Below the pieces are notes generated by a model. That model was not told where the DNA came from and made no database searches. It was given only the letters and a program-made list of their open reading frames with translations. A stretch of DNA of 21,607 bases, taken from assembly GCA_964525635.1 (NCBI GenBank), contig CAZGJX010000077.1, positions 1 to 21,607 of the forward strand. Reading direction: 5' to 3'. Both the position numbers and the translations under genes were made by a program. Of the stretch, positions 1-21,524 are shown piece by piece; position 1 is the stretch's first letter, and each line of letters begins with the position of its first letter. Origin of the DNA: an uncultured archaeon. GTDB lineage: Archaea > Asgardarchaeota > Lokiarchaeia > Sigyniarchaeales > SOKP01.

Positions 1-2073
1 TTTTGAAATTATATCATACCCACGAGTAAGAGAGAAGCGAGGGAAATAGGATTTTAAATTATCAATTATTTCTTGAGATTGAATCGTATCTCTGATGGTT
101 AATGATATATGATATTTTGCGAAATGTGTTGTGGGAATTGTGTTAATTAATATAGGTTTAATTAGTGGAGCTTCAATTTGAATATATTTTTCAATTATTT
201 CCTCTATTTTTTCATTTGTTAATTCTTGAATTTTATAGGATTCATACAAATCACTTAATTTTTCTTGTTTTTTAGAATAGATGATTTCTGCTGTATCTTG
301 ATGTTTGGCTATTTTTTTAATAGCTTTAAGACTAAATATTTTTAAATTAAAACAAAACTTTAAGATTGAGGAAAAAAATTCATATTTTTCAATTTCTTTG
401 ATAAATTCTGATTTATCATTAAAATATAATGGTATTAATTTATGAATGAATGTTTTTGTTATTTTTTCTTGAAATATATATTGAGAAAATAATGATATAT
501 CATATTTTTTTAAGAAATTTTGAAAAGAATAAAGATTGTATATTTCTGAATGGTTTGAAATTAGATCTTGAATTTGTTCACCTAATAATATGATATTTTC
601 TAAAAACTCTTTAAGATAAAATGAACTTGAACTCTTAAATAAATCTAATAAATTAAGAAAATGGTCTTTAAGACTTAGATTATTGTGTAAGAATTTAAAC
701 TTTTTTTTAAGATTCTTAATTGAGGCGGCTTGACTAAGGATTTCGTTCATTAAATCAGATTTTAATTGTTTAATTGATTCTCTATTCGGTTCAAATCCAA
801 AACCAGTAATGGAATAATATCTAATTCTATCTAAAATTAAAAAATCTAAAAGAGTTAAGGTAATTGAATCCTTTTTTTTTCCTAAATGATGAGTAAAATT
901 AATTTCATATTGTTTATTATAATTTCTATGATTCTTGTTAATAAAGAGATTCTGATTATGATATTCTCTGAAATAATTTAAGTTCAAATTATTTTCAATA
1001 TAATTACATTCAATACAAGCTATTTGTGTAATATAACCATTTTCTTGGAATTTTAGCAATAATGAAGCAAAATCATTTAAATATGGTTCTGGGAGGATTT
1101 CATATCCTATAATCTGGATTGAAAATCCGTTTTCTGAAATTCTGACATTTTGAAGAAAGGGTAATAGTTCTATTATTTTCCTTACTTTATAGTTTGTGAG
1201 ATTTGGATGGAATTCTAATTTAAGTATATATGGAATTACCCCCATTTGAAAATGATTAATTTTATATGAGGGGGATATATATGTAAAGTTTTTTATCCAT
1301 CGAAAGTTTTGTGTAAATTTCCTTAAACTTAGACCAGTCTCAATTGTACCATCATCCTTAAATTTTGAAAAATATTCCTTATATTCGTAGAGAGCTCGAT
1401 ATGATTTGAGTCGATAAAAAATTTCAATTAAAATTCGGATAGTTTCTATTATATCTTCATCTCTCATTGATTTCGAGGTCTTAAAAATGAATTGGTTAAA
1501 TAAATCATCATAAAAATCAGTAGTATTATCTTCTAAGATATTAAGATTTTTTCTTACATAATTAAAAAAAAAATTAATTGGACCTTCATGATCTTTTGTC
1601 TGGGATTGTAAAAATTTTCCAAGACGATCAAATTGAGCATCTAAAAAGTCATGATCAACTATATTCTCTTTAATTAATTTACTCCATTCGGAATATGTTA
1701 CATGTTTTTTTAGTTTAATTTCAACAATTTGATTAATAAATATTTTAATTGCTTTATTTTCATATATTTCTATAGGTAAGAAACAATAATAGATCTCCCT
1801 CAATAAGATAAAAGGATAAAACTTTTGATATTTAGTAGATAGCTTAAGAGTCAGAGATGCATTTTGATATTGTCGTTGAACACCAAATGAAAAAATATCA
1901 ATATTATTGAATATATCCTTTGTTTTATTGATATATACGTTATCTATTATTGGATCTATATCTAATTTTTCACTAAGTTGTTCTAGTAGAACTTTAAAAA
2001 GATCTTCTAATTTTTCCTCTGTAATATTATTTTCATCCAAGGCCTTTACATATTCGAGGAAAATCTTAGTCAT
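1..2073 (-). CDS. Large hypothetical protein, 3'-truncated by the window edge (>=691 aa); possible degenerate zincin-like N-terminal motif and Lrp/AsnC-like modules
   Basis: Manual translation from ATG at 2073 (MTKIFLEYVKALDENNITEEKLEDLF...KYQKFYPFILLREIYYCFLP...YISPSYKINHFQMG...LTLLDFLILDRIRYYSITGFGFE...YFPRFSLTRGYDIISK) shows no stop in 691 codons down to position 1. Absent from the ORF track, presumably because it has no stop in the window. Confidence 0.93.
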   Translation of the reverse strand, partial: MTKIFLEYVKALDENNITEEKLEDLFKVLLEQLSEKLDIDPIIDNVYINKTKDIFNNIDIFSFGVQRQYQNASLTLKLSTKYQKFYPFILLREIYYCFLPIEIYENKAIKIFINQIVEIKLKKHVTYSEWSKLIKENIVDHDFLDAQFDRLGKFLQSQTKDHEGPINFFFNYVRKNLNILEDNTTDFYDDLFNQFIFKTSKSMRDEDIIETIRILIEIFYRLKSYRALYEYKEYFSKFKDDGTIETGLSLRKFTQNFRWIKNFTYISPSYKINHFQMGVIPYILKLEFHPNLTNYKVRKIIELLPFLQNVRISENGFSIQIIGYEILPEPYLNDFASLLLKFQENGYITQIACIECNYIENNLNLNYFREYHNQNLFINKNHRNYNKQYEINFTHHLGKKKDSITLTLLDFLILDRIRYYSITGFGFEPNRESIKQLKSDLMNEILSQAASIKNLKKKFKFLHNNLSLKDHFLNLLDLFKSSSSFYLKEFLENIILLGEQIQDLISNHSEIYNLYSFQNFLKKYDISLFSQYIFQEKITKTFIHKLIPLYFNDKSEFIKEIEKYEFFSSILKFCFNLKIFSLKAIKKIAKHQDTAEIIYSKKQEKLSDLYESYKIQELTNEKIEEIIEKYIQIEAPLIKPILINTIPTTHFAKYHISLTIRDTIQSQEIIDNLKSYFPRFSLTRGYDIISK

Positions 2074-2750: not shown

Positions 2751-3785
2751 TTATTCCAATATCTCAACCCAGCCAAATTCATCTTTAATGTCTAATCTTT
2801 GAATACCAATGAGAAGTTTATATAATTTCTTAGTTATATCTCCTGGTTGCTTATTATTGTAGATTTTAGTTTTTCCTTCACATGTAATTGAACCAATTGG
2901 AGTTATAACTGCTGCAGTCCCAGTACAGAAGGTTTCTGTGCAATTTTCTTTAAAAATTTCTTGATATGAAATATTTCTTTCCTCAACTTTCATATTTAAT
3001 TTTTCTCTTGCTAATTCAAGGACAGACTTTAGTGTGATTCCTTCTAGTATTGTTCCATCCATTTTTGGAGTAACAAGTGTATCATCAATTATAGCACAAA
3101 AATTAGCAGCACCAACTTCATTTATATATTTCATATTAATAGAATCTAAATAGATAACTTGATCGTATCCTTGTTTTTTTGCTTCAATTGCAGGTTTCAT
3201 TGTTCCTGCATAATTACCACACATCTTTGAAAATCCTGTACCTCCTTGACTGGAACGGGTATATTTTTTTGAAATTAAAAGTTCGATTCCATTAAATCCA
3301 TTTGAAAAATAAGAGCCAACGGGTGAACAAAAAATTATGACTTTAAACTCCTTCGCTGGACACACTCCAAGCATAGGACCACTTCCAATCATTATTGGTC
3401 TAATATATAAAGATCCACCAGTATTGTAAGGAGGAATAAATTCTTTATTAGATAAAATGACTCTCTTAACTGCCTCAGTATACTTATCTTCGTCAAAACA
3501 AGGCATTGCAATTCTAGAAGCACTCTTATTAAATCTCTTAGCATTTTCAACAGGACGGAATAAAACAATTTTATTATCCTTCGTTTTTAATGCTTTCATT
3601 CCCTCAAAAATTCCTTGGCCATAACTGAAAACATTTGCTGCTGGAGATATTTCTATATTATCAAAAGGAATTAGCTTACCTTCATCCCATTTACTATCTT
3701 TATAGTCTGAGATAAACATAAATTCCGTTTGGGTTAGTTCAAATCCTAAATTATTAAAATCTATATCTAAATTCTTTGATTGCAT
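2751..3785 (-). CDS. ilvE: Branched-chain amino acid aminotransferase (PLP fold IV, bacterial ilvE_II-like type)
   Basis: Motifs YGQGIFEGMKA, LFRP, SLYIRP, GGTGFSK(187)MCGNYA (PLP lysine), EVGAAN, ILEGIT, GTAAVITPIG. Confidence 0.96.
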   Translation of the reverse strand: MQSKNLDIDFNNLGFELTQTEFMFISDYKDSKWDEGKLIPFDNIEISPAANVFSYGQGIFEGMKALKTKDNKIVLFRPVENAKRFNKSASRIAMPCFDEDKYTEAVKRVILSNKEFIPPYNTGGSLYIRPIMIGSGPMLGVCPAKEFKVIIFCSPVGSYFSNGFNGIELLISKKYTRSSQGGTGFSKMCGNYAGTMKPAIEAKKQGYDQVIYLDSINMKYINEVGAANFCAIIDDTLVTPKMDGTILEGITLKSVLELAREKLNMKVEERNISYQEIFKENCTETFCTGTAAVITPIGSITCEGKTKIYNNKQPGDITKKLYKLLIGIQRLDIKDEFGWVEILE

Positions 3786-3840
3786 TTTTTTTCACTTTTT
3801 CTTTTTGAATTTAGACCTTATTATCTAAGTGCTTTTTAAA

Positions 3841-3934
3841 CTGACCCTCTCTAAAACAATTTGATCCCTAAATCAAGATATCATATCCTTAAGAATAAAT
3901 AGAAGAAAAAGTCAGGAAAAGCTATCTTGACTTA
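3841..3934 (-). promoter_or_regulatory. Attenuator-like RNA leader: hairpin + U-tract with alternative 12-bp helices
   Basis: Hairpin AAGUCAAGA/UCCUGACUU (3933-3909) runs into UUUUUCUUCUAUUUAUUCUU. Alternative pairings: 3934-3923 with 3880-3869, and 3915-3904 with 3852-3841. Confidence 0.65.
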
Positions 3935-4018
3935 TAATACTACTACGTTAGCAGCAGCTAGAGCTACAGCTAAATAATTAATAACTATATTTTCCATATT
4001 AGTATTATTTAAGGTCAT
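3932..4018 (-). CDS. Putative ilvE leader peptide MTLNNTNMENIVINYLAVALAAANVVVL (28 aa; alternative start 3997, 21 aa)
   Basis: ATG 4018 to TAA 3932, co-oriented with ilvE and ending 146 nt upstream of it. The last 18 codons contain 10 Ile/Leu/Val and 5 Ala, ending GTA GTA GTA TTA TAA. Confidence 0.75.
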   Translation of the reverse strand: MTLNNTNMENIVINYLAVALAAANVVVL

Positions 4019-4040: not shown

Positions 4041-4048
4041 TATTTAAG
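4041..4048 (-). promoter_or_regulatory. Candidate TATA box for the leader-ilvE transcript
   Basis: CTTAAATA ends about 22 nt upstream of leader ATG 4018, compatible with a near-leaderless start. The AT-rich background limits specificity. Confidence 0.35.
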
Positions 4049-4180
4049 ATTTATGTTCTTTTTGGTGTTTTTAGTGGGAAAATAAACCCAAATATATCAG
4101 AATTATTGAGAATATTACTATATGTAGATTTTGGTAAGTAACTTATTTTTTATATAAATTTATAAATTTAAAGAAATAAT

Positions 4181-4223: not shown

Positions 4224-6416
4224 ATGCCTGATGATAAAAAAATCTCACAAGTAAATGAATATATATCTCATGGGAAATTTCAGTCTGCTTTAGAGACTAT
4301 AAAACTAATCGAAGAAGAGAGGAAATTATCTGATGATGAATCTTTAATAAAGAAATATGCAAGAATTTTTCTTTATCTTGATAAAGGTAAGTTTCAACTA
4401 GGAAGAACCCTTGCTGATGAAATGATTAAAGAATCAAGGAAACAAAATAATATTTTAAGGGAAATAGATGCATTCATTGGAAAGATTGAAAATACAATTT
4501 GTTTAGGAGTAATTGAAAAGTCCTTAGATTTAATTAAGAGAGGAAAGACAGTTTTAGAGAAATTTCAGGATAAAAATAGTCGAGAATTCATAAGAAGAAA
4601 AGCGTATTTAAAATTTTTAAAGGGACGTGTTTTTGCTGAGAAAACAGAAATGCATAAATCCATAAAACTAATCGAAGATAGTTATTATCTTAGGAAGGAA
4701 ATTAATGATAAATATGGAATGTTATGGTCTTTATTAAATTCTGGTTCATTAATAATGTCCATTGGAGAGTTCCAAAAAGGTAAAGAATACTTAGAAAAAA
4801 GTTTGAGAATAGCAGAAGAACTTAATTGTGAAGTTGGAATTGTATGGGCTTCAATCCATTTAGGAGGTATTGAATATCAACTTAGCAATTTAGATGTCGC
4901 AATGTCATATGCAGAAAGATGTCTTTTAATTACCGAAAAACAAGAATATAAACACTCAAGTTCTAGTTGTTATGATATTATTGGACATTGTCTAAATAAA
5001 AAAGGAAAGTTAGATAAAGCTCTATATTATTTCCAAAAAAGTTTGGTAAATAGAATAGAGTCAGGTTATAAATATTTAATCGCACAATCCTTTTATACAA
5101 TTGGAAATATTTATATTCAGAAAGGTCAACTTAAAGAAGCTTTAGATTATTTTAATCAAATATTAGAAATGCCAGAGGTTCAAGAAGACGACGTTTCTAA
5201 ACCAGCATATCTCACAACAATTGGAAGAATACATGGAGAACTCGGAGATTTCTCTACCGCAAAAAAATATTTAACACAAGCAATTGAACTATTAAAAAAT
5301 AAAGAAGGATATATATTTCATTATCAAAATTTTTCTTTATCAATAACGACAACTCTTCATGGTTTAATTGTTATTTTAGCAGAAGGTAAAGAATTTAATA
5401 TGGTTGATTTTTATTTAGAGGAATTATATAAATTAAGCCAAAAATATCCTGAAATAAAACAATTTGAACAATTATATCGATTAGATAAAGCAATTGTTTT
5501 AAAATCAAGTGATCGATTAATGGATAAGATGGAAGCTGGAGCAATTCTTAAAAGAATTACAGAAGAAGATATTATTGATTATGAAATAACTACCGAAGCA
5601 ATGACAAATTTATGTGAGGTGTTAATTAATGAATTAGAATTAACTGGCGATAACAAGATTTTTCATGAAATAGTATCACTTTCAGATATATTACTTGTAA
5701 TTGCACAACATCAAAATTTATTTGATTTATTAGCAAAAACATATTTCTTTAAGGCTAAAATTTCACTACTACAATTAAATATTAATAATGCAAGATTATT
5801 ATTAATAAAAGGTCAAAACACTGCATATAAACATGGATTAAAACGATTAGCAAATAAAATATCAAATGAACACGATTCTCTATTAGAAAATTTAGATAAA
5901 TGGGAAGAGAGGAAAAAGAATAAAATTTCTTTGCAAGAAAGAATAAATGAATCCAGAAATGAATTATTATTCTCTAAAATGGTTAGGTCTAGAATATCAG
6001 ATAGTATAATAGAAAGAGATACTTCAATTTATCTGGTAATTCTAAGTAGCGAAAAAGGAGATAGTATATATAGCAAAGCATTCGAAGAAATTAAAATTGA
6101 TGATAATCTTATAGCAGGTTTTATTTCAGCTATTAACATGTTTGGAAAAGAAGCATTTTCTTCTTCAGGATCGATTGATCGGATAAAACATGGAGAATAT
6201 CTAATAATTCTCCATTCTCATAAGGAGCTTATATTTGGATATGTGTTTAAGGGTCAATCCTATTCAGCAATAACTAAATTAGAAAATTTAATTGAAGAAT
6301 TATCAAACTCAGAGAAATTAATTAATTCTTTAAAATGGGCAATTAGAGGTTACACAGAAATTCCTGATGATATTCACAATCAGATAGATATGTTAGTTGA
6401 ACAAATTTTCTTATAA
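4224..6416 (+). CDS. Tetratricopeptide-repeat protein with C-terminal longin-like domain (paralog 1)
   Basis: Repeated TPR patterns (e.g. YDIIGHCLNKKGKLDKALYYFQKSL, FYTIGNIYIQKGQLKEALDYFNQIL). The C-terminus YLVILSSEKGDSIYSKAF...NLIAGFISAINMFGKEAF...IDRIKHGEYLIILH...FGYVF has the beta-beta-alpha-beta-beta-beta-alpha pattern of longin domains. Confidence 0.85.
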   Translation: MPDDKKISQVNEYISHGKFQSALETIKLIEEERKLSDDESLIKKYARIFLYLDKGKFQLGRTLADEMIKESRKQNNILREIDAFIGKIENTICLGVIEKSLDLIKRGKTVLEKFQDKNSREFIRRKAYLKFLKGRVFAEKTEMHKSIKLIEDSYYLRKEINDKYGMLWSLLNSGSLIMSIGEFQKGKEYLEKSLRIAEELNCEVGIVWASIHLGGIEYQLSNLDVAMSYAERCLLITEKQEYKHSSSSCYDIIGHCLNKKGKLDKALYYFQKSLVNRIESGYKYLIAQSFYTIGNIYIQKGQLKEALDYFNQILEMPEVQEDDVSKPAYLTTIGRIHGELGDFSTAKKYLTQAIELLKNKEGYIFHYQNFSLSITTTLHGLIVILAEGKEFNMVDFYLEELYKLSQKYPEIKQFEQLYRLDKAIVLKSSDRLMDKMEAGAILKRITEEDIIDYEITTEAMTNLCEVLINELELTGDNKIFHEIVSLSDILLVIAQHQNLFDLLAKTYFFKAKISLLQLNINNARLLLIKGQNTAYKHGLKRLANKISNEHDSLLENLDKWEERKKNKISLQERINESRNELLFSKMVRSRISDSIIERDTSIYLVILSSEKGDSIYSKAFEEIKIDDNLIAGFISAINMFGKEAFSSSGSIDRIKHGEYLIILHSHKELIFGYVFKGQSYSAITKLENLIEELSNSEKLINSLKWAIRGYTEIPDDIHNQIDMLVEQIFL

Positions 6417-6588
6417 TAAGCTTAGAAAGAATATCTTTAGAAAAAGAGATATGGTTAAATAGCTATTTCTGTAAAATATATTAGATTTAACATTTTTTAA
6501 AGATTAAATAATTGATTTTTTTTTTTCAAAAATATTAGAAAGTAAAGTTATTATAAATTTGAATTTATATAGTTTATAGAATAATAAA

Positions 6589-6601
6589 GTGAATTTATAA
6601 T
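6589..6601 (+). promoter_or_regulatory. Candidate BRE/TATA promoter of TPR-longin gene 2
   Basis: GTGAA-TTTATAAT, with the TATA element starting 37 nt before ATG 6631, mirroring the element at 4181-4193. Confidence 0.5.
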
Positions 6602-6630
6602 ATATTTTATGTTTTGTACGATACTAAAAA

Positions 6631-8832
6631 ATGTCAGAAAAACGAAATTTACAATTTAATGAATTCTTATCACAAGGAAAATATGTAAAAGCTTTGCAAC
6701 AACTAAATCTAATTAAGAAAAAAAGATCTTTATCTGAGGATGAAATTTTAGTCAAAAAATATATTCAAATTTTTATACATCTCGATAAAGGTGAATTTCA
6801 AAAAGGACGAAGTCTTGCTGAAGAATTGATCAAGGATTCGAAGAAAAAAAAGAATGTGATACGAGAGATTGACGGAATAATCGGGAAAACTGAAAATACT
6901 ATTTGTTTAGGATTATTTGATGAAGCAATGGAATCAATTAAAAAAGGAATTACTCTATTAAAAAAAATTGAAAATAAAGATAATAACCTTTACTTAGAAA
7001 GAAAAGCTTATTTAATATTTCTAAAGGGTCGTGCTTTTGCTGAAAAATTTAAGATGTTTGAGGCAATTAAATCATTTCAAAAAAGCTATGAACTTAGAAA
7101 ACAAGCTGATAATAAATATGGTATGTTATGGTCCTTATTGAATTGGGGATCTTTAGCAATGGGCGTAGGTAAATTTAGGGAAGGTGAAAATTACTTAGAA
7201 AAAAGCCTTAAAATTGCTGAAGAACTAGATTGTGAAGTTGGAATTATATGGAACTTAATTAATTTAGGAGGAATTGAATATCAACTTAGAAATTTAGATA
7301 AAGCAATATCATATGCAGAAAGATGTCTTTCAATTTCAGAACCGAGAGATTATAAACATTCAAGTTCAATGTGTTATGATATTATGGGTCATTGTCTATT
7401 TAAAAAAGGATTTCTTGATAAAGCATTAGTGTATTTTCAAAAAAGTCTAGAGAAGAGATTAGAAACAGGTTATAAAAATTTAATAGCACAGTCTTATTAT
7501 AGCATTGGAAATATATATACTCAGAAAGGTGAACTTAAAGATGGTTTAGCTTATTATGAAAAAATATTAAAAATGCCTGAAGTTAAAGAAGATAATGTTT
7601 CTAAACCTGCATATTTAACTACAATTGGAAAAATATATGGAGAACTAGGAGATTTTCATACCGCAAAAAAATATTTAATAGAAGCATTTGAACTATTAAA
7701 CAATAATGAACAATATCTATTTCATTATCTAAATTTTAGTGTATCAATAATAAAAACTCTTCATTATATAATAGTTCTTTTGGTTGAAAATAATGAATGT
7801 AAGGACATAGAGTATTACCTTGATGAATTATATAAATTAAGCCAAAAATATCCAGAAATGAGACAATATGAAATGATGTATCGTTTGGATAAAGCAATTG
7901 TATTAAAATCAAGCAGTCGATTAATGGATAAGATGAAAGCAGGAACAGTTCTTAAAAAAATCACCAAGGAAGATATTATTGATCATGAAATAACTATCGA
8001 AGCAATGACAAATTTATGTGAAGTATTAATAAATGAATTAGAATTAACAGGAGATACAACAATTATTCAAGAAATTGTAATTCTTTCTGATAAATTACTT
8101 GAAATTGCACAATCTCAATATTTTTATGATTTATTAGCAGAAACATACTTCTTTAAAGCAAAAATATCATTACTACAATTAGATATTAATAATACGCGAT
8201 TATTTTTAATGAAAGCTCAAAATACCGCAAATGACCATGGATTAAAACGACTAGCAAATAAAATATCAAATGAACATGACTCATTATTAGAAAACTTAAA
8301 TGATTTAGAAGAAAAAATTAAAAAAAATACACCTTTACAACAAAGAATAAATGAATCAAGAAATGATTTTTTATTCTCTAAAATGGTTAGGTCTAAAATA
8401 TCTGATCAAGTAAGAGTTATAGATACTCCAATATATCTAGTTATATTAAATAGTAACAAAGGAGATTGTATTTACAGTAAAGCATTCGAAGAAATTAAAA
8501 TTGATGAAAATCTTATAGCAGGTTTTATTTCAGCTATTAATATGTTTGGAAAAGAAGCATTCTCTTCTTCAGGATCTATTGATCGTATAAAGCACGGTGA
8601 ATATATGATAATTCTACATTCTTATAAAGAATTTATATTTGGATATGTGTTTAAAGGGCAATCCTATCCAGCCTTATCTAAATTAGAAAGTCTTATCGAA
8701 CAATTATCACAATCCAAGGAATTAATTAAGTCTTTAGATTATTCAATTCACAGTTATATGGAAATTTCTGATGAAACACAATTGGAAATAGATACTCTGA
8801 TCGACCAAATTTTTTCTTATAAAAGTAAATAG
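6631..8832 (+). CDS. Tetratricopeptide-repeat protein with C-terminal longin-like domain (paralog 2)
   Basis: Colinear along its full length with 4224..6416, with long identical blocks (VSKPAYLTTIG, EAMTNLCEVLINELELTGD, HGLKRLANKISNEHDSLLENL, NLIAGFISAINMFGKEAFSSSGSIDRIKHGEY). Confidence 0.85.
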   Translation: MSEKRNLQFNEFLSQGKYVKALQQLNLIKKKRSLSEDEILVKKYIQIFIHLDKGEFQKGRSLAEELIKDSKKKKNVIREIDGIIGKTENTICLGLFDEAMESIKKGITLLKKIENKDNNLYLERKAYLIFLKGRAFAEKFKMFEAIKSFQKSYELRKQADNKYGMLWSLLNWGSLAMGVGKFREGENYLEKSLKIAEELDCEVGIIWNLINLGGIEYQLRNLDKAISYAERCLSISEPRDYKHSSSMCYDIMGHCLFKKGFLDKALVYFQKSLEKRLETGYKNLIAQSYYSIGNIYTQKGELKDGLAYYEKILKMPEVKEDNVSKPAYLTTIGKIYGELGDFHTAKKYLIEAFELLNNNEQYLFHYLNFSVSIIKTLHYIIVLLVENNECKDIEYYLDELYKLSQKYPEMRQYEMMYRLDKAIVLKSSSRLMDKMKAGTVLKKITKEDIIDHEITIEAMTNLCEVLINELELTGDTTIIQEIVILSDKLLEIAQSQYFYDLLAETYFFKAKISLLQLDINNTRLFLMKAQNTANDHGLKRLANKISNEHDSLLENLNDLEEKIKKNTPLQQRINESRNDFLFSKMVRSKISDQVRVIDTPIYLVILNSNKGDCIYSKAFEEIKIDENLIAGFISAINMFGKEAFSSSGSIDRIKHGEYMIILHSYKEFIFGYVFKGQSYPALSKLESLIEQLSQSKELIKSLDYSIHSYMEISDETQLEIDTLIDQIFSYKSK

Positions 8833-12388: not shown

Positions 12389-15300
12389 TTACCAATAAAT
12401 CTCTTTTAAAGTTTCATGGTATTCATTTAGAGATTTTACTGATATTTCTCTTGTTCTTACTTTTTCTATTGCATTTACAAGTGCTTCTGCTAACTGTAAA
12501 TCGATTATAACGGGTATATTATAATCAACTGCCATTCTTCTAATTTGATATTCATCTTCTATTATTTGACGGAATTTCTTTTCTATGGTAGTTGGTAAAG
12601 GTATGTTAATGACCATATTAATATTTCCAGTTTGAAGACATTCTTTGATATTAGGTTCCATTCCACGTTCACTAACTTTATACAATCTAACAGCTGGAAT
12701 TCCATTTTTTTTAAGAGATTCTGCTGTATGTTTTGTGGAAAAAATCGTAAATCCTAAATTTATTAATTTTTTAGCAATTGGTATGATTTGTTCTTTTAAT
12801 TTATCACCACCAACAGAGATTAATACATTACCACCTTCAATAGGAATAAATTGTTCTGCGGCTTCAAGAGCTTTCATTAAAGCGCTTGGTAGATCTTCAC
12901 TAATTACAGCAACTTCACCAGTACTATTCATTTCTACTGAGAGGATTGGGTCTGCATTATCCAATCTCATAAAAGAAAACATAGGAGATTTAACAGCAAC
13001 AAAATCACCATAGGGTAAATTTAATAATCTTTCGGGTATTTTTTGTCCCATAACAACTTCTGCAGCTAATTTCATTAAATTAATACCACGCGTTTTAGAT
13101 ACATAAGGCATACTTCTACTAGAACGTAAATTACATTCTATAACAAATACTTCTCCATTTTTAACTAAATATTGAATATTAAATGGTCCTTGAATCTTCA
13201 ATGCTAAAGCTATATCTTTTGTATATTTTTCAATTGTCTGAATAACTTCATTTGAAACGGTTTGAGGTGGAATTGACATTGTAGCATCACCAGAATGAAC
13301 ACCTGCATTTTCAATATGTTCTACTACTGCACCAATAAGTACTTTTTCACCATCACATATTCCATCACATTCTAATTCTCGTGAATCTGTGAAGAATTTT
13401 GTTATTACTACAGGATACTCTTGGGAGACTGCTGCTGCTAAATCCAATGTATCTATCAATGTTTTTTCATTATAAGAAACTCTCATAGCCGCACCACTTA
13501 ACACATAAGAAGGTCTTACAAGAACAGGATAACCAACTTTATTGGCAAAATGAAGTGCTTCATCCTTTTTTATTAATATACTCCATTCAGGTTGTTTTAT
13601 ATTCAATTGATCTAATAAATTACTAAATTTTGAGCGATCTTCTGCCATATCAACCCGTGAACCATGAGTACCTAAAATATTTATACCAGCTTTACGATAA
13701 AATTCGGAATATTTAGAAAATTTAGCAGCAAGATTTTGAGCTATTTGTCCACCTGCATTTAAAACAATTCCATAAGATTTTTCGAGCTCACAAATATCTA
13801 AAACTCTTTCCCCAGATAATTCTTCGAAATATAATCTATCAACTAAATCATAATCTGTTGAAACCGTTTCAGGATTATAATTAATCATTATTGCTTTGTC
13901 TATTCCTAATTTTTGAAGCCCCCATAAACAATTAACACTTCCCCAATCAAATTCACAACTACTTCCAATTCTATAAGTTCCACATCCTAAAACAATAACT
14001 TTTTTTAAATTATCCCTTTCTTCTTGTTTATAGTCAATATCATGTTTATTTCCCCAATAGGTTAAATATAAATATTGCCTTTTAGGGACGCATTGTCCTG
14101 CTAATGTATCAATCTGTTTTACATATGGTAAAATATTATATCTTTTACGTAATCTCCTTATAGTAGGAGTGTCAACACCAATTATTTTTGCTATTTGCCC
14201 ATCTGAAAATCCATATCTTTTAGCTTTTCTGAATAAATATTGTTTTTCATCATCATTTGATTTTAGAAAATCTAATTCTTTAATATCTTTTTCAATATCT
14301 ATTATATTTTTTAATTTATAAAGAAACCACTTGTCTATTTTTGATCTTTCATAAATTACATCAATAGAGATTCCTCGCTTAATTGCCTCTCCTATTCTCA
14401 AGAATCTTAAATCTGTAGGATTTCTTAATTCATATTTTAATTCATTAATATCTTCTATAGGTTCAAGGTTATTTCCAACAAAACCTTTTAAACCAATATC
14501 TAACATACGGATAGCTTTCTGACATACTTCTTCAAAGCTTCGCCCAATACTCATACATTCCCCAACGCCTTTCATTTGAGGGCCTATACGTCGATCTACT
14601 CTTTCAAATTTTGTTAAATCCCACCGAGGATATTTCAGAACCATATAATCAGTTGCAGGTTCAAAATTAGCGGTAGTTTTAAGTGTAATTTGGTTTAATA
14701 ACTCAGGTAATTTATATCCAATTGCAATTTTAGCGGCTATATAAGCTAATGGATATCCAGTTGCTTTTGAAGCCAAAGCTGATGATCTTGATAATCTTGC
14801 GTTTATTTCAATAGCTCTAAATTTTTTGCTAAAAGGATCTAATGCCCATTGTATATTACATTCTCCACATACACCTACACCTTTAGTTGCTCGGATTGAA
14901 GCAGATCTTAACATTTGAAGTTCTTCATCAGTTAGAGTTTGAGCAGGAGCTACCACTATAGAATCACCAGTATGTATACCACATGGATCTACATTCTCCA
15001 TACTACAATTAATAAAACAATTATCATCCGCATCTCTAAGTATTTCAAATTCAATTTCCTTCCAACCCCAAACACTTTCCTCAATTAAAATCTGGTTAAT
15101 ACGTGATTGTGCCAATCCTCGTTTAGCTAATCTTTCAAATTGATCCCAATTATTAATAAAAGCAGAACCTCTACCCCCTAACACATATCCAACTCTAAGC
15201 ATTATTGGAAATCCGATTTCTTTAGCAGCTTTTACAGCATCTTTATAGTTATTAACGGCAACACTCTTACAAACAGGGCAATTTGCTTCATTCATAGCTT

Positions 15301-15700
15301 TAACAAATAATTCTCTATCCTCTGTAGCTTCAATTGCTTTAATAGGTGTTCCGCATACCTTAACGTTATATTTTTCCAGAATTCCTGCTTCATATAGCTC
15401 TACACCTACATTAAGTCCTGTTTGTCCTCCGAAGGCTAGACAAATTCCATCAGGTCGTTCTTTTTTAATAATTTCCTCAACATATTTAATTGTGATAGGC
15501 TCTAAATATACCCTGTAGGACATTTGAGGATCTGTTTGGATTGTTGCTATATTAGGATTAATTAAAATCGTCTTAATTCCTTCCTCATTCAATGCTTTTA
15601 AAACTTGGCTTCCACTGTAATCAAATTCTCCAGCTTGACCTATTCTTACAGCACCAGATCCTAAAATTACTACTTTTTTTAAAGTTTTGTCCAATGGCAT
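12389..15700 (-). CDS. carB: Carbamoyl-phosphate synthase large subunit, divergent copy
   Basis: GSGAVRIGQAGEFDYSGSQ, LGGRGS, GIHTGDS, IEINARLSRSSALASKATGYP, RPSYVLSGAAM, AGVHSGDA, VIECNLRSSRS, C-terminal MGS-like domain. Confidence 0.96.
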   Translation of the reverse strand: MPLDKTLKKVVILGSGAVRIGQAGEFDYSGSQVLKALNEEGIKTILINPNIATIQTDPQMSYRVYLEPITIKYVEEIIKKERPDGICLAFGGQTGLNVGVELYEAGILEKYNVKVCGTPIKAIEATEDRELFVKAMNEANCPVCKSVAVNNYKDAVKAAKEIGFPIMLRVGYVLGGRGSAFINNWDQFERLAKRGLAQSRINQILIEESVWGWKEIEFEILRDADDNCFINCSMENVDPCGIHTGDSIVVAPAQTLTDEELQMLRSASIRATKGVGVCGECNIQWALDPFSKKFRAIEINARLSRSSALASKATGYPLAYIAAKIAIGYKLPELLNQITLKTTANFEPATDYMVLKYPRWDLTKFERVDRRIGPQMKGVGECMSIGRSFEEVCQKAIRMLDIGLKGFVGNNLEPIEDINELKYELRNPTDLRFLRIGEAIKRGISIDVIYERSKIDKWFLYKLKNIIDIEKDIKELDFLKSNDDEKQYLFRKAKRYGFSDGQIAKIIGVDTPTIRRLRKRYNILPYVKQIDTLAGQCVPKRQYLYLTYWGNKHDIDYKQEERDNLKKVIVLGCGTYRIGSSCEFDWGSVNCLWGLQKLGIDKAIMINYNPETVSTDYDLVDRLYFEELSGERVLDICELEKSYGIVLNAGGQIAQNLAAKFSKYSEFYRKAGINILGTHGSRVDMAEDRSKFSNLLDQLNIKQPEWSILIKKDEALHFANKVGYPVLVRPSYVLSGAAMRVSYNEKTLIDTLDLAAAVSQEYPVVITKFFTDSRELECDGICDGEKVLIGAVVEHIENAGVHSGDATMSIPPQTVSNEVIQTIEKYTKDIALALKIQGPFNIQYLVKNGEVFVIECNLRSSRSMPYVSKTRGINLMKLAAEVVMGQKIPERLLNLPYGDFVAVKSPMFSFMRLDNADPILSVEMNSTGEVAVISEDLPSALMKALEAAEQFIPIEGGNVLISVGGDKLKEQIIPIAKKLINLGFTIFSTKHTAESLKKNGIPAVRLYKVSERGMEPNIKECLQTGNINMVINIPLPTTIEKKFRQIIEDEYQIRRMAVDYNIPVIIDLQLAEALVNAIEKVRTREISVKSLNEYHETLKEIYW

Positions 15701-15704
15701 CGAG

Positions 15705-16838
15705 TTATACCTCCATTAATTTTATAAATTTGTTAAAAATGATATCTCTCATATCTAATGCTCCAGGAGAGGCATCTGGATTGAATGCTACAGAAAATAT
15801 TGGTTTAGATTCATGATAAAGCCCCTCATTGGTTTTATCATCTTTATCATGATATAATTCCTTAAAACCATTCTTTTCAAAATTTTTTAAACAATAACCA
15901 TGATTCTGAAAAGTAATATAGCAATGATTGCTAGCATTATCTACAGTTGTTCGACCACCTCTATGCTCAGAAATCATTCTACAGCATTCACCCCCAGCAG
16001 CAAGTCCTATAATCATATTTCCTAAGCCAATTCCAATTGTTGGGATATTATTATTGATTAATTCTTTGACAAACTGTATTTGTTCTATTAATAAATTGGG
16101 ATTCCCTGGACCATTTGATAATAATACTCCATTAAGTTCTAATTCTTTTAAATTTCTATAGGGATACGTATGGGGAATCAAAATTACGTTAAATCCTTTA
16201 TTTAATAAAATCCTTAAAATATTATTTTTTATTCCAAGATCTAAGACTGCTACTGTTCCCTTTGGGTCAGAAATCATAAATTTTTTAATCTCTTTAGTAG
16301 AAACTCTTGAAATTATCTCCTTATTAAGAGGATCCTCAATAACTTTCACATCTTCTTTTAATTGTTCAATATTAGGTTTTTGACCAATATCAAAGACTTG
16401 AACCAATCCTAATTGAGATCCTTTTTCAACAATCCTTTGAGTTAACATTCTAGTATCAATCCATTGAATGCCAGGGATATCTTCTTGAATAAGCCAATCC
16501 TCTAATGACATTATACTTTCATAATGACTTGGTTTTTTACAATATTCATTAACTATAATTCCCTTTAATTTGATGGAATCTGATTCAAAATGTTTAGGAA
16601 TTCCATATTTATCTATTATCTTATCTGGTACACCATAGTTTCCTATTAGAGGATACGTGAAAATGATAATTTGATCTTTATATGTACTATCTGTAAGTAC
16701 TTCTATATAACCTGATCCCGGAACTGTTGAAAATGTTATTTCACCAGTGACTTTTTTAGGAGCTCCTATTCCTATACCTTCAAAATAAGTCCCATCTTGT
16801 AACATCAAGATAGCTGGCTTCTCAGTTTTGTAAATCAT
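15705..16838 (-). CDS. carA: Carbamoyl-phosphate synthase small subunit, glutaminase-inactive variant
   Basis: CarA motifs (TYPLIGNYG, IDTRMLT, LSNGPGNP, QNHGY), but GIGLGNM replaces GICLGxQ and FNPD replaces FHPE. Confidence 0.93.
   Translation of the reverse strand: MIYKTEKPAILMLQDGTYFEGIGIGAPKKVTGEITFSTVPGSGYIEVLTDSTYKDQIIIFTYPLIGNYGVPDKIIDKYGIPKHFESDSIKLKGIIVNEYCKKPSHYESIMSLEDWLIQEDIPGIQWIDTRMLTQRIVEKGSQLGLVQVFDIGQKPNIEQLKEDVKVIEDPLNKEIISRVSTKEIKKFMISDPKGTVAVLDLGIKNNILRILLNKGFNVILIPHTYPYRNLKELELNGVLLSNGPGNPNLLIEQIQFVKELINNNIPTIGIGLGNMIIGLAAGGECCRMISEHRGGRTTVDNASNHCYITFQNHGYCLKNFEKNGFKELYHDKDDKTNEGLYHESKPIFSVAFNPDASPGALDMRDIIFNKFIKLMEV
15709..15714 (-). promoter_or_regulatory. Shine-Dalgarno GGAGGT for carB, embedded in the end of carA
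   Basis: ATGGAGGTATAACTCGATG, 8 nt before ATG 15700. The equivalent GGAGA at 20400-20396 precedes the other carB. Confidence 0.65.
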
Positions 16839-17060
16839 GGTAATTATTATTTTCTTTTTTTTTTTATATAATAAATATAGCTAATTAAACTATTTTATTT
16901 AATATAATAATCATTCAATAATATTATTAAAATGAAAGAAGTAAATGAAGAGTTACCTCTGTTTAAAAATAAAAAATTTTCTTTTTAGTAAATAATTCAT
17001 CAATTATTCTCATTTAACTAATCCAGTTTTAAACTTTAATTAGAATTATTTGATAATACT

Positions 17061-17066
17061 AAAAAA
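17061..17066 (-). terminator. Oligo-T terminator candidate after the canonical carAB operon
   Basis: TAA-CCTCAGGA-TTTTTT directly after the carB stop at 17075. Confidence 0.4.
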
Positions 17067-17074
17067 TCCTGAGG

Positions 17075-20000
17075 TTACCAATATATTTCTTCTAAAGTTT
17101 CATGGTATTCATTAAGTGATTTAATTGATGGTTCCTTTCTTCTAATATTTTCGATAGCATTAATTAAAGCTTTTGCAAATTCTAAATTTATAATTACAGG
17201 AATATTATAATCCACAGCTATTCGTCTAATTTTATACTCATCTTCAATAATAGTCCTAAATTTTTCTTTAATTGTTGTAGCTTGTGGAATATTAACAACT
17301 AAATCTATTGCTGCATTTTGAAGACATCCAATAATATTAGGCTCTTGTCCATATTCATGAACTTTATAAAGTCGAACAGCATATATTCCATTTTCTCTGA
17401 GTACAGCTGCAGTATCTTCAGTTGCGAAGATAGTAAATCCTAACTCTTTTAATTTCAATGCTAAAGGTATAACTTGTTTTTTTAATTCTTCCCCACCAAC
17501 AGAAATAAGAACATTTCCACCCGATAAAGGAATTTTCTGCTCTGTAGCTTCTAAGGCTTTAACTAATGCATCAGAGAAATCATCTCCAATACATGCAACC
17601 TCTCCTGTGGAAGCCATTTCTACACCTAAGACAGGATCAGCTTTATCAAGCCTAGCGAATGAGAACATTGGAGTTTTTACAGATACATAATTCCCATAAG
17701 GTAAATTTAAAAGCTTTTCAGAAATCTTTTTTCCTAAAAATACTTCAGCAGCAAGTCTCATTAAATTAATACCCCTTGTCTTTGAGACATAGGGCATACT
17801 TCGACTTGATCTTAAATTACATTCTATTACAAAGACTTCTTTATCTTTTATTAAGTATTGAACATTAAAAGGACCTCTAATTTTTAATGCTAAAGCTATT
17901 TCTTTTGTATATTTCTCAATTATTTGTATGACTTCATTTGATATTGTTTGTGGGGGAATAACCATATTCGCATCTCCACTATGAATTCCAGCATTTTCAA
18001 TATGCTCAATAATTGCTCCAATAAAAACATCGGTTCCATCACAAACACCATCCGCTTCGATTTCTCTTGCATTAGTAAAGAATTTGGTAATTACAACAGG
18101 GTATTGAGTTGAGATAGAAGCTGCTAGATCAAGTGTATCTTTCAATGTCTTTTCATCATATGAAACTCTCATTGCAGCTCCACTTAGTACATATGAAGGT
18201 CTAACTAATACGGGATAACTTACTTTTTCTGCAAATTTTAGTGCGTCTTTTTCAGTAGTTAATGTAGCCCATTGAGGTTGTCTTATATTTAATTGATCTA
18301 ATAAATAACTAAACTTGGATCGGTCCTCTGCTATATCTATACGGCTTCCATGAGTACCCAATATATTAATATTTGTCTTCCTAAAAAATTCATTATATTT
18401 TGAAAATTTAGCGGCGAGGTTTTGGGCAATTTGTCCACCTACTGATACAACTACACCCTCAGCTTTTTCGAGTTCACATATGTCCAATACTCTTTCTCCA
18501 GAGAGTTCCTCGAAGTAGAGCTTATCACAAATATCATAATCTGTACTTAACGTCTCAGGATTATAATTTATCATAATAGCTTGATCAACACCTAAATTCT
18601 TTAATCCCCATAAACAATTAACTGATCCCCAATCAAATTCTACAGAAGCACCTATACGATATGTCCCAGAACCTAAAACAATGAATTTTCTTAGGTTTTC
18701 TTGATTTTCACGCTGGAAATCAATATCATGTTCAGAAGCGGCATATGTTAAATATAAATAATTAGTTATAGCAGGCCATTCTGCTGCTAGAGTATCAATC
18801 CTTTTTACAAAAGGTTTAATTTGATACTTTCTTTTTAATATTCTTCTGGTTGTTATAGCATCTATACTAATTATTTTAGCAATTTGTCCATCAGAAAATC
18901 CAAATCTTTTTGCCCTTTCGAATAAGTAATGTTTAATATCGTCATCTTCCTCTAAAAAGTTAATTTTTGATAATTGTTCTTCAATTTCAATAATATTATT
19001 AATTTTATATAGAAACCATTTATCAACTCGAGAGAGACGATATATTTCATCGATAGAAATCCCCCTTTTTATTGCTTCAACAATTCTAAATACTCTTAAA
19101 TCAGTAGGATTTTTAAGTTGATATTTTAATTCATTTAAATCTTCAATTGGATCTAAATTGTTAGCAACGACACCTTTCATTCCTATATCAAGCATTCTTA
19201 TTGCTTTTTGAAGAACTTCTTCAAAAGTCCTTCCTATTGCCATTACTTCTCCAACACTTTTCATTTGACTACTAATATGTCTATCAACACGTTGGAATTT
19301 TGTCATATCCCATCTTGGGATTTTTAAAACAAGATAATCCAGTGCTGGTTCAAAGCAAGCAGTTGTTATTCCAGTAATTTTATTTTTCAATTCTGGTAAA
19401 TTATAACCTATTGCTAATTTTGCCGCAATATATGCTAGTGGATACCCAGTTGCTTTAGAAGCTAAAGCAGATGATCTTGATAATCTTGCATTTACTTCAA
19501 TTACTCGAAATTCTTTAGATCTAGGATCCAGAGCATATTGTATATTACACTCTCCAATAATACCTAAATTTCGAATAACCCTAATTGAGGCAGAACGAAG
19601 CATATGATATTCTTCATTTGTTAGAGTTTGAGAAGGAGCAACAACTATACTTTCACCAGTATGAATTCCACAAGGATCAAAATTCTCCATATTACAATTT
19701 ATAAAACAATTGTCGGCAGCATCTCGAACAACTTCATATTCAATTTCTTTCCAACCCCAAACACTTTCCTCAATTAATATTTGATGAATTCTTGATTGAG
19801 CCAATCCTCGTCGTGCCATTTTTTCAAATTCATTAATATTATTTGCTATTCCAGATCCTCTTCCGCCTAAAGTGTAAGCTACTCGTATCATTAAAGGAAA
19901 TCCAAATTCATTAGCCGCCTTAATAGCTTCTTTATATGATGTGACCGCTTTACTTCTGCATACAGGAGCCTTAGAAGCGTCCATTGCTTGAACAAATAAA

Positions 20001-20389
20001 TTCCTATCTTCAGTAGCCTGAATTGCTTCAATTGGAGTCCCCAAAACACGAATATTATATTTATCTAAAATGCCTTCTTCAGCAAGTTCTACTCCAACAT
20101 TAAGTGCAGTTTGACCTCCAAATGCTAATAAAATTCCATCTGGTCGTTCCTTCGCAATAATTTTTTCAACATACTTCACATTAATAGGTAAAAGATATAC
20201 TCTATCGGATAATTCGGGATCAGTTTGAATTGTAGCGATATTTGGATTAATAAGAATTGTTTCAATACCTTCTTCCTTTAAGGCTTTAAGAACTTGAGAG
20301 CCAGAATAATCAAATTCTCCTGCTTGACCAATTCGAATACCTCCTGAACCCAAAACTAAAGCTTTTTTAATTGTCTTATCTAAGGGCAT
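17075..20389 (-). CDS. carB: Carbamoyl-phosphate synthase large subunit, canonical copy (1104 aa)
   Basis: Same motifs as the other copy, plus the canonical IDTLAAEWP and TTACFEPALDY. Start reassigned from 20422 to ATG 20389 (MPLDKT, matching the paralog; SD upstream; removes the overlap with carA). Confidence 0.96.
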   Translation of the reverse strand: MPLDKTIKKALVLGSGGIRIGQAGEFDYSGSQVLKALKEEGIETILINPNIATIQTDPELSDRVYLLPINVKYVEKIIAKERPDGILLAFGGQTALNVGVELAEEGILDKYNIRVLGTPIEAIQATEDRNLFVQAMDASKAPVCRSKAVTSYKEAIKAANEFGFPLMIRVAYTLGGRGSGIANNINEFEKMARRGLAQSRIHQILIEESVWGWKEIEYEVVRDAADNCFINCNMENFDPCGIHTGESIVVAPSQTLTNEEYHMLRSASIRVIRNLGIIGECNIQYALDPRSKEFRVIEVNARLSRSSALASKATGYPLAYIAAKLAIGYNLPELKNKITGITTACFEPALDYLVLKIPRWDMTKFQRVDRHISSQMKSVGEVMAIGRTFEEVLQKAIRMLDIGMKGVVANNLDPIEDLNELKYQLKNPTDLRVFRIVEAIKRGISIDEIYRLSRVDKWFLYKINNIIEIEEQLSKINFLEEDDDIKHYLFERAKRFGFSDGQIAKIISIDAITTRRILKRKYQIKPFVKRIDTLAAEWPAITNYLYLTYAASEHDIDFQRENQENLRKFIVLGSGTYRIGASVEFDWGSVNCLWGLKNLGVDQAIMINYNPETLSTDYDICDKLYFEELSGERVLDICELEKAEGVVVSVGGQIAQNLAAKFSKYNEFFRKTNINILGTHGSRIDIAEDRSKFSYLLDQLNIRQPQWATLTTEKDALKFAEKVSYPVLVRPSYVLSGAAMRVSYDEKTLKDTLDLAASISTQYPVVITKFFTNAREIEADGVCDGTDVFIGAIIEHIENAGIHSGDANMVIPPQTISNEVIQIIEKYTKEIALALKIRGPFNVQYLIKDKEVFVIECNLRSSRSMPYVSKTRGINLMRLAAEVFLGKKISEKLLNLPYGNYVSVKTPMFSFARLDKADPVLGVEMASTGEVACIGDDFSDALVKALEATEQKIPLSGGNVLISVGGEELKKQVIPLALKLKELGFTIFATEDTAAVLRENGIYAVRLYKVHEYGQEPNIIGCLQNAAIDLVVNIPQATTIKEKFRTIIEDEYKIRRIAVDYNIPVIINLEFAKALINAIENIRRKEPSIKSLNEYHETLEEIYW

Positions 20390-20390
20390 C

Positions 20391-21524
20391 TTAAATCTCC
20401 ATAAGTTGTATAAATTTATCAAATAAATATATAGAATCTATTGGACCAGGGGCTGCCTCTGGATGGAATTGAACTGCAAAAATAGGTTTTTTTTCATGAA
20501 TTATCCCTTCATTTGAATTATCATCTATATTTTTAAGGAATTCTTTAAATCCCCCTTTTTCAAAATCTTTGACACAGAAACCATGATTTTGAGGTGTAAT
20601 ATAACATTTATGAGTATCTATATTAATAACTGTTTTATTTCCCCCTCTATGTCCATATTTTAATTTATAAGACATACCTCCAGCTGCTAAGCCAATTATT
20701 TGATTTCCTAAACAAATTCCGAAAGTTGGAATGCTATTTTCAATTAATTGTTTGCAAACATTAATTGCATTTGTATATACTTTAGGATCTCCCGGACCAT
20801 TGGAAATAAATACCCCATTAGGATTCAAATCCATTATTTGGTTATAGGTATAATTATAAGGTACAAGAATTACCTCTAAATTTCTATTTAAAAAATTTCT
20901 TAAAATGTTATACTTTACACCTAAATCCAGAATAACTACTCTTCCTCTTGGATTAGAAGGAATATATTTTTTTATTCCTTTTGTTGAGACTTCACTAGCT
21001 AAATATCGAAGGTTAGGATCTTCAGCTTCCTTAACAATTTTTCTTAATTCTTCAATATTAGGTTTTTCACCTGAATTATAAACAGCTAACAATCCAACTT
21101 GAACTCCTTCTTCTCTTAAGATTTTCGTTATAGCTCGAGTATCTATCCATTCAATCCCAGGAATATCCTGTTCCAATAAAAATTCATCTAATGTTTTAAC
21201 ACTTTCATAATGACTGGGGTGTTTACAACATTCATTAACAACAAATCCACTTACTTTAATAGAATCAGATTCAAAATATTTAATAAGACCAAATTCATCT
21301 TTTTCCCATGGAGGAACTCCATAATTTCCAACAAGAGGATGAGTCATTACTACAATTTGTCCTTGATAGGATGGATCCGTTAAAGTTTCATTATAACCAG
21401 CACCTGTTATGGTATTAAAAACAAGTTCACCAGTAACAACTTTAGATGCTCCAAAACCAATTCCTTGGAAATATCTTCCATCTTGAAGCATTAATATAGC
21501 GGGTTTTTCGTTTTTATATTGCAT
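20391..21524 (-). CDS. carA: Carbamoyl-phosphate synthase small (glutaminase) subunit, intact
   Basis: LTDPSYQGQI, ISNGPGDP, FGIC(271)LGNQ, GHRGGN, QNHGF, QFH(354)PE(356): complete Cys-His-Glu triad. Confidence 0.96.
   Translation of the reverse strand: MQYKNEKPAILMLQDGRYFQGIGFGASKVVTGELVFNTITGAGYNETLTDPSYQGQIVVMTHPLVGNYGVPPWEKDEFGLIKYFESDSIKVSGFVVNECCKHPSHYESVKTLDEFLLEQDIPGIEWIDTRAITKILREEGVQVGLLAVYNSGEKPNIEELRKIVKEAEDPNLRYLASEVSTKGIKKYIPSNPRGRVVILDLGVKYNILRNFLNRNLEVILVPYNYTYNQIMDLNPNGVFISNGPGDPKVYTNAINVCKQLIENSIPTFGICLGNQIIGLAAGGMSYKLKYGHRGGNKTVINIDTHKCYITPQNHGFCVKDFEKGGFKEFLKNIDDNSNEGIIHEKKPIFAVQFHPEAAPGPIDSIYLFDKFIQLMEI

Follow-up and report, generated by a model that had tools for sequence, protein, structure and literature searches.

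Ribosome-mediated attenuation is a textbook mechanism of bacteria, which needs coupled transcription and translation together with hairpin terminators. The leader-peptide attenuators of enterobacteria reportedly include ilvL of ilvGMEDA, ivbL, leuL and trpL, and another group of bacterial attenuators, among them mgtL/mgtA, corA and tnaC, is Rho-dependent and controlled by an upstream open reading frame (uORF). To our knowledge, Archaea have no Rho. They couple transcription and translation but terminate differently. In a full-text literature search we found no published report of a leader-peptide attenuator in any archaeon. Here we describe the 5' leader of ilvE, which encodes a branched-chain aminotransferase (BCAT), in a contig of 21,607 nucleotides (CAZGJX010000077.1, referred to as the window) from an uncultured archaeon of the Lokiarchaeia. 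A short leader frame lies in this transcript within conserved RNA helices that belong to two alternative folds, and we consider it fairly probable that it constitutes a translation-sensing two-state leader, in which the position of the ribosome would choose the fold.

A first-pass annotation had described four pairing segments between the stop of the leader frame and ilvE, in the transcript order A, B, C and D. Their sequences and coordinates proved exact (Table 1), and both the A:C helix of 12 bp (1 G-U) and the B:D helix of 12 bp (3 G-U) are present, exceed the dinucleotide-shuffle expectation and co-vary across genomes. The annotation also placed the stop of the frame inside A and recognized a crossing topology, A<B<C<D, unlike the textbook 1:2/2:3/3:4 layout, and on these points we agree. 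We found three additional helices that had escaped it, S:D, P1 and linker:E. The whole leader folds with -54 kcal/mol (z = -3.3), and 0 of 200 dinucleotide shuffles fold as well; the A-to-C stretch alone gives -16.4 kcal/mol (z = -2.4) and the linker-to-E stretch alone -24.8 kcal/mol (z = -2.9). A hairpin local to C, listed earlier as a feature, has to be dropped: with -4.3 kcal/mol and z = -0.9 it is not distinguishable from chance, and, from reading of the sequences, what recurs of it in other lineages is unrelated sequence only.

The three further genomes of the genus have leaders about 76% identical to this one, and in another genus the conservation is weaker. A covariance model built from ten leaders gave matches in 27 of the 151 genomes of the order, all of them from one Asgard (Promethearchaeota) family, and 0 in the other three families. 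By genus, matches were obtained in 3/3 (g1), 7/7 (g3), 6/6 (g6), 2/2 (g9), 4/8 (g5) and 4/53 (g11) genomes. The recurrence of A:C and B:D was followed in 32 related leaders from six genera. Most matches are of one of two types, and the comparisons given below over 23 leaders comprise 14 leaders of the ilvE type (type 1) and nine of a second type (type 2).

We define State 1 as S:D1 + P1 + A:C and State 2 as S:D2 + linker:E + B:D1. When RNAalifold was run on ten full leaders, the consensus was a nested fold of S:D1, P1 and A:C with B in the loop, and the layout proposed earlier was not chosen. In State 1, 93.2% of the cells are paired, compared with 37-53% when the 3' partner is slid, 7 pairs show changes in both partners, and not one of 500 shuffles matches the score. 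State 2, which is also the minimum free energy (MFE) fold of the window, has 83.8% of the cells paired (35-60% when slid) and 5 pairs changed on both sides, again with a score that 0 of 500 shuffles match. Among the individual helices, S:D1 is paired in 98.6% of the cells, its last pair being UA in 5 genomes and CG in 4; in P1 89% of the cells are paired and 3 pairs have changes in both partners; the core of B:D is 91% paired, and linker:E 82.5%, with one pair that is GC in 4 genomes and AU in 3. Compensatory changes are also found in S:D2, which goes from GACCUU:AAGGUC in the window to GAUCUC:GAGAUC in genome G151. Over the 32 model matches A:C is 88% paired and 10 of its 12 pairs changed on both sides, in an alignment that was fitted to the model and favours the helix. 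The central A:C pair (3930/3873) is U-A in the window, A-U in G018 and G-C in G054, G151 and G152.

Because MAFFT misplaces some helices, we added an alignment-free test, in which the duplex energy of a segment with the partner region of its own genome was compared with the energies obtained with the regions of other genera, over the 23 leaders. For A:C the own partner gave -14.8 kcal/mol and foreign partners -9.5 kcal/mol (difference 5.3), the own one being better in 22 leaders; for B:D the values were -18.7 and -13.6 kcal/mol (difference 5.2; 21 leaders) and for P1 -12.9 and -9.5 kcal/mol (difference 3.5; 20 leaders). With narrow windows, the own partner was better in 23/23 leaders for A-core:C and in 22/23 for B-core:D1. 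S:D had the better own partner in 13 of the 14 ilvE-type leaders and linker:E received moderate support (17/23); a pairing of the linker with the 5' flank of C, tried as a general shared-strand element, found no covariation support (11/23) and was rejected. Judged from these comparisons, A:C and B:D are real, conserved and co-varying helices.

Table 1. Features of the ilvE leader and its surroundings, in transcript order (window coordinates).
Feature	Position	Strand	Remark
Palindrome GGG-N8-CCC	4076..4089	-	14 bp, 5' of the TATA box; likely transcription-factor site (predicted)
TATA box (TTAAATA)	4041..4047	-	22 nt ahead of the leader ATG
Leader open reading frame (ORF)	3932..4018	-	28 codons, MTLNNTNMENIVINYLAVALAAANVVVL, plus stop; the stop codon is the first three bases of A
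S (UGACCUU)	4011..4017	-	Transcript 5' end, with the start-codon UG; partner of D1 or D2 (RNAalifold)
P1a	3997..4008	-	5' strand of P1, ORF codons 4-8; pairs with the last codons (RNAalifold)
Hairpin inside the ORF	3948..3973	-	Made of Ala, Val and Leu codons; -11.9 kcal/mol, z = -3.0; mean z = -1.7 over 23 leaders
P1b	3934..3945	-	3' strand of P1, last four codons + first stop nucleotide (RNAalifold)
A	3923..3934	-	Stop codon + 9 nt, 5' strand of A:C; A:C in every leader, -8 to -21 kcal/mol
Linker (GCUUUUC)	3916..3922	-	Pairs with E, lengthening B:D; in the MFE fold
B	3904..3915	-	Nearly invariant pyrimidine segment, U5 at 3910-3906; 5' strand of B:D
C	3869..3880	-	3' strand of A:C; covariation with A
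D (D1)	3841..3852	-	Purine-rich GGUC box; partner of B, or of S
E (AAAAGC)	3831..3836	-	Partner of the linker; closes the long hairpin 3922-3831
D2 (UAAGGUC)	3814..3820	-	Second GGUC box; partner of S in the MFE fold
ilvE	2751..3785	-	Class II branched-chain aminotransferase; Pfam Aminotran_4; Shine-Dalgarno-like GUGA at 3795-3792

We propose that transcription would start at, or a few nucleotides from, the AUG of the leader frame. In State 1, P1 and A:C form with the pyrimidine tract B displayed in the loop and S:D1 closes the 5' end; in State 2, the long hairpin (linker:E + B:D1) buries B and S:D2 closes the whole leader. Since D is transcribed only after C, A:C has the first chance to form, and in nearly all leaders with C correctly placed the RNA made before D folds as A:C, with 8-16 pairs. 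State 2 is the more stable one once the whole leader exists; the long hairpin is the full-length MFE fold in most leaders, including that of the window, with State 1 only 2-9 kcal/mol above it. In the finished RNA, S:D pairs the 5' AUG of the leader with the GGUC boxes. A ribosome that lingers at the last codons or at the stop would cover A and none of the long hairpin and would steer the RNA to State 2, and with the ribosome gone or never loaded A:C would form. In this way the speed at which Ala, Val, Leu and Ile codons are read would be converted into an RNA fold. The geometry fits this proposal, given that in 17 of 21 leaders the long hairpin has as its first nucleotide the 13th or 14th when counting begins with the first stop-codon base. 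In toeprints, a ribosome whose A site holds the stop has its leading edge at about that nucleotide, so A would be the part hidden by a terminating or late-stalled ribosome; in line with the first-pass annotation, a ribosome that has reached the end of the frame would cover precisely this segment. When a footprint is placed over A and the last part of the frame, B:D stays intact.

We infer that the leader frame is translated from its conserved coding features. Frame 0 has zero stops in 23/23 leaders, compared with 2-7 and 0-5 stops in the other frames, and a leader would keep the frame open by chance with a probability of about 0.11. The frames are 24-37 codons long and always stop at the start of A, and all indels that fall within the frame in the 10-sequence alignment are multiples of 3. 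A TATA-like box was recognized in 17 of the 23 leaders, and in 16 of those it lies 22-28 nt ahead of the AUG. With archaeal promoter spacing, such a distance places the transcription start at or beside the AUG, and therefore a leaderless or nearly leaderless start is predicted. The last 12 codons of ilvE-type frames comprise Ala 45%, Val 21%, Leu 14% and Ile 11%, the background being 4.0%, 4.3%, 9.9% and 11.4%, respectively, with Phe at 1%, and in the window the second half of the frame consists almost entirely of Ala, Val, Leu and Ile codons. Type-2 tails contain Val 42% and Leu 40% and zero Ile or Phe (backgrounds 11% and 5%). An enrichment of the uORF in codons of the candidate regulating amino acids is present, and part of it is also explained by RNA pairing.

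A hydrophobic tail is also what a small membrane-peptide gene would have, lying ahead of a static structured ilvE 5' region whose helices serve stability without any sensing. We hold this to be rather unlikely. The frame is conserved and open and its C-terminal half is hydrophobic in all leaders, S:D would sequester the 5' end, and the two folds do not differ in access to the ilvE ribosome site, all of which such a gene would accommodate. However, the peptide sequence is poorly conserved save in RNA-paired stretches, and hydrophobic residues abundant in this AT-rich genome are avoided in the tails (Ile and Phe in type 2, Phe in the ilvE type), both types favouring the rare Val and Ala. Moreover, the stop has a fixed place within helix A, the edge of the ribosome footprint coincides with the start of the long hairpin, and both alternative folds are kept by covariation.

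The converse reading, distinctly unlikely in our judgement, leaves only the RNA: a protein- or ligand-binding leader or a static pseudoknot, with an untranslated frame that is open only through the pairing constraint. The covariation of P1, S:D, A:C and B:D altogether is what would be expected of it. B is more conserved than pairing alone demands, A:C and B:D could coexist as a pseudoknot, and in G151 a GUA (Val) to GCA (Ala) change is matched by ACU to GCU in P1a, which keeps the pairing and not the amino acid. Such an element would nevertheless have to remain open in every one of the 23 leaders at the chance given above, over 24-37 codons and with in-frame indels, and to carry an AUG at the TATA distance expected for a transcription start and a stop always at the start of A. 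In addition, Rfam 15 gave no covariance-model match at gathering thresholds, and a permissive scan returned one chance match (E = 0.89).

Within the translation-sensing reading, the output of the switch has to be considered separately. The first-pass annotation had presented A:B as a terminator-like hairpin competing with the other folds, which a ribosome over A would remove. The hairpin does exist in the window (-6.1 kcal/mol, z = -2.1, with 8 of 200 shuffles as good), U5 comes directly after it, and it is restricted to this genus, in whose four genomes it is kept; as a conserved terminator state it is very improbable. Its central two pairs are broken in 6 of the 10 aligned genomes with no compensatory change, and of its cells 72.5% are paired (30-65% when slid), with 0 pairs changed on both sides and a score that all 500 shuffles reach. 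In the alignment-free test the own partner gave -5.0 kcal/mol and foreign ones -5.2 kcal/mol, hence no own-versus-foreign advantage (+0.2 kcal/mol; own better in 8/23). The B position facing the 3930 base of A never changes, and it is C rather than B that compensates for changes in A. A scan for bacterial-type terminators (GC-rich hairpin + U-run) found 0 sites, A:B + U5 being weak and not conserved, and archaeal termination is reported as needing no hairpin (introduction of PMC8716108). A U-tract right after A:C or the long hairpin was also tried as a general terminator and rejected; it is found in some genera and is absent in this one.

A translational attenuator, with one fold hiding the Shine-Dalgarno sequence and start of ilvE as in mycobacterial leaderless Cys uORFs, is hardly credible either, for although in several leaders the ilvE ribosome-site region pairs best with B (-11.3 kcal/mol in the window) and D1 resembles a Shine-Dalgarno sequence, neither B nor S has an own-versus-foreign advantage with the ribosome site, which co-varies with no leader segment in this test, is unpaired with a probability of 0.84-0.89 in every state in the window (0.88, 0.84 and 0.89 in one calculation, 0.86 and 0.89 in another), and shows no consistent state-dependent change of access over the 14 ilvE-type and nine type-2 leaders. 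Occlusion of the ilvE Shine-Dalgarno sequence or start by B, S or any leader segment was rejected on these grounds.

The pyrimidine tract offers a different output. The annotated U-tract is present, as U5, in almost all of the 23 leaders, with shorter U-runs in G151 and G011_C61, and across leaders about 27-34 nt separate the first base of the stop codon from the end of the run. The 34-nt tract around B (3922-3889), found in every leader, has on average 51% U, 23% C and 8% G, while the rest of the leader has 32%, 10% and 20%. FttA/aCPSF1 reportedly binds single-stranded, U-rich nascent RNA, and its terminator spans -1 to -36 with a U-rich part at -30 to -36 (PMC11616081); the KH domains of aCPSF1 bind U-tracts (PMC8716108). 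The authors of the former work also hypothesize that a coupled ribosome excludes FttA (PMC11616081). In composition the tract fits a U-rich stretch of about 30-36 nt that might be available to FttA, whose involvement is plausible on this ground. Since B is looped in State 1 and duplexed in State 2, a fold-dependent access of FttA or of another nuclease would be the most economical output. We tentatively suggest that premature termination or cleavage, by FttA/aCPSF1 or another U-rich-preferring nuclease, is set by the single-strandedness of B; this is a possibility to which we give limited confidence.

Type 1 leaders precede ilvE in at least 15 genomes, and the same architecture is found in front of other genes. 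Neither these paralogous leaders nor the absence of IlvC and IlvD considered below had been noticed in the first-pass annotation. Type 2 leaders have tails such as VVVLVVVL and are followed by a strong GGAGG Shine-Dalgarno sequence and a 41-46-codon acidic ORF, which ends in ...(I/L)AW in 8 of the 9 loci, with double stops after it in most. They are located at L133:1671-1805 (+), L136:1678-1815 (+), L147:1332-1466 (-) and six other loci, and in some of them a further small ORF carries the motif PGEIEIEDE. The small ORFs behind type-2 leaders gave no match in Pfam. In the genome of the window (G000), contig 6 contains two more partial copies, L002 1501-1835 (+) and L003 ~1440-1530 (-), which have the promoter, the 5' AUGRCCUUA and the sequence of P1a in common with the ilvE leader. 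The L002 copy encodes the peptide MALYNTNSEKRKIKFPDVALATHIVIVL, has its own A, B and C segments and lies ahead of two ABC exporter-type genes. The L003 copy looks degenerate, with a stop after 19 codons and no model match, and lies ahead of an EamA permease. A further copy, in G056, precedes a pyridoxal-phosphate (PLP)-dependent decarboxylase. At L138 1406-1755 (G007) the frame, A, B and C are intact, with no D boxes and no downstream gene on the same strand, and this leader looks like a truncated or rearranged copy. Finally, L137, L141 and L142 (genus g11) are weak model matches whose frame, MSFSHNTT...IRSIIKRE, passes the usual stop position; they may form a divergent subtype, or their frame may be a different one.

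Several observations weigh against a translation-sensing leader, or at least against its simplest form. Concerning the frame, Ile and Leu are at background in ilvE-type tails, and RNA pairing also constrains the last codons; part of the cognate-codon signal is structural, since P1 pairing is kept in G151 and Ala codons build the in-frame hairpin. A genome-wide scan for leaderless short ORFs with single-amino-acid tails left only the ilvE leader as convincing, and no cognate leaders were seen before ileS, valS or leuS in the genome of the window. Concerning the switch, no nucleotide of the window belongs both to A and to the long hairpin (3922-3831). The mutual exclusivity of A:C and B:D claimed by the annotation therefore holds only for nested folding, in which they are alternatives, and they could coexist as a pseudoknot; by our own estimate its loops (7, 23 and 16 nt) would be sterically adequate. 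In type-2 leaders, by contrast with this window, about 5 nt are common to both folds, from reading of the sequences. The annotation had also proposed that B:D buries the U-tract. B is indeed duplexed in State 2, but D is made about 60 nt after B, and burying B cannot for that reason act on termination at U5 itself, only on later events such as the access of a factor or nuclease.

The physiological context adds to these difficulties. KARI (IlvC) and IlvD domains were not found in the genome of the window, which is 100% complete by marker genes, while 14 of 14 control genomes matched; KARI was not found in G001 or G018 either. Related leaders precede the ABC exporter, the EamA permease, the PLP-dependent decarboxylase and small ORFs. 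Because of both the absence of IlvC/IlvD and the genes behind related leaders, the usual logic by which starvation turns on synthesis is not obviously applicable. The absence of IlvC cannot fix the direction of regulation, because three other leader-bearing genomes (G151, G048 and G011) have it. Which state is ON is not readable from the sequence, as the annotation had already stated, and we regard scarcity = ON and surplus = ON as roughly equally probable. The exporter, the permease and the decarboxylase look like disposal routes, which would suit surplus = ON. In this sense, and as a speculation that we put forward with considerable reserve, leader frames of Asgard archaea might choose between folds that hide or expose a U-rich FttA/aCPSF1 landing site and might control in this way the disposal or salvage of amino acids rather than their biosynthesis.

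The genome behind the window has 4.45 Mb in 245 contigs with 27% G+C. The ilvE product scores 417 bits with the NCBIfam BCAT equivalog (cut-off 307), and its nearest solved structures are all BCATs. The nearest named relatives of ilvE belong to metagenome-assembled genomes of 'Promethearchaeota archaeon', i.e. Asgard archaea; in the two closest of these (ilvE 60-63% identical) the leader was not found. Upstream of ilvE, the TATA box (4047-4041) is followed by the 28-codon frame and then by 146 nt of non-coding leader. The palindrome 5' of the TATA box is found in 9 of the 14 ilvE-type leaders and in 0 of the nine type-2 leaders. In 8 of the 9 it precedes the ATG by about 60 nt, and in the window by 71 nt. 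Similar elements precede both contig-6 copies (L002 ~1443-1456 and L003 ~1576-1589), and the palindrome is probably a transcription-factor site working alongside the leader. On the other side, two neighbouring TPR proteins of about 730 aa each are encoded at 4224-8832 (+). These genes are divergent from the ilvE leader, so the 438-nt intergenic region holds two promoters. Two tandem carA-carB operons (377 + 1103 aa and 377 + 1115 aa; Pfam) are located at 12389-21524 (-), and the window contains no tRNA genes.

If the speculative reading with an FttA/aCPSF1 landing site is confirmed, it would represent regulated transcription attenuation in Archaea built on a eukaryote-like termination machinery and not on the bacterial hairpin terminator. 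The leader provides a defined test object, since its helices are named and each has compensatory changes, and it comes from relatives of the lineage that is nearest to eukaryotes. It could serve to ask how an archaeal ribosome might talk to RNA polymerase or to FttA. It also calls for caution, as conserved 'regulatory codons' can be under RNA-pairing constraint too and relying on composition alone is risky.

Compared with the enterobacterial attenuators, the ilvE leader likewise has a short cognate-codon upstream frame, a stop beside alternative pairings, a ribosome whose position would decide the fold, and a downstream gene of branched-chain amino-acid metabolism. It differs from them in that it is found in an archaeon with a TATA promoter and a predicted leaderless start and has no GC-rich hairpin + U-run, its folds, of crossing topology, share no strand in this window, it pairs its 5' AUG, and its first with its last codons, and its genome lacks the biosynthetic pathway. 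We do not class it as a bacterial leader-peptide attenuator, because an intrinsic terminator is absent and the transcript is archaeal and, as predicted, leaderless. With H-type pseudoknots it shares the order A<B<C<D and covariation support for both A:C and B:D; unlike in these, its stems have at least 12 bp each and long loops, and nested folding treats the stems as alternatives. Rho-dependent attenuators resemble it in a pyrimidine-rich, G-poor tract that would be shown or hidden by uORF translation and in a factor acting on naked nascent RNA; the candidate factor here would instead be FttA/aCPSF1, a CPSF73 homologue (PMC11616081), and the parallel is one that we infer. Closest in form are the mycobacterial leaderless poly-Cys short ORFs of the 'Cys ribulon' (10.1101/834739), where a leaderless short ORF is also the first cistron, codon-specific stalling has been proposed to remodel the RNA, and several loci are involved. 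The difference lies in the output: in the ilvE leader, ribosome-site access does not vary with the state and the ribosome site is not masked.

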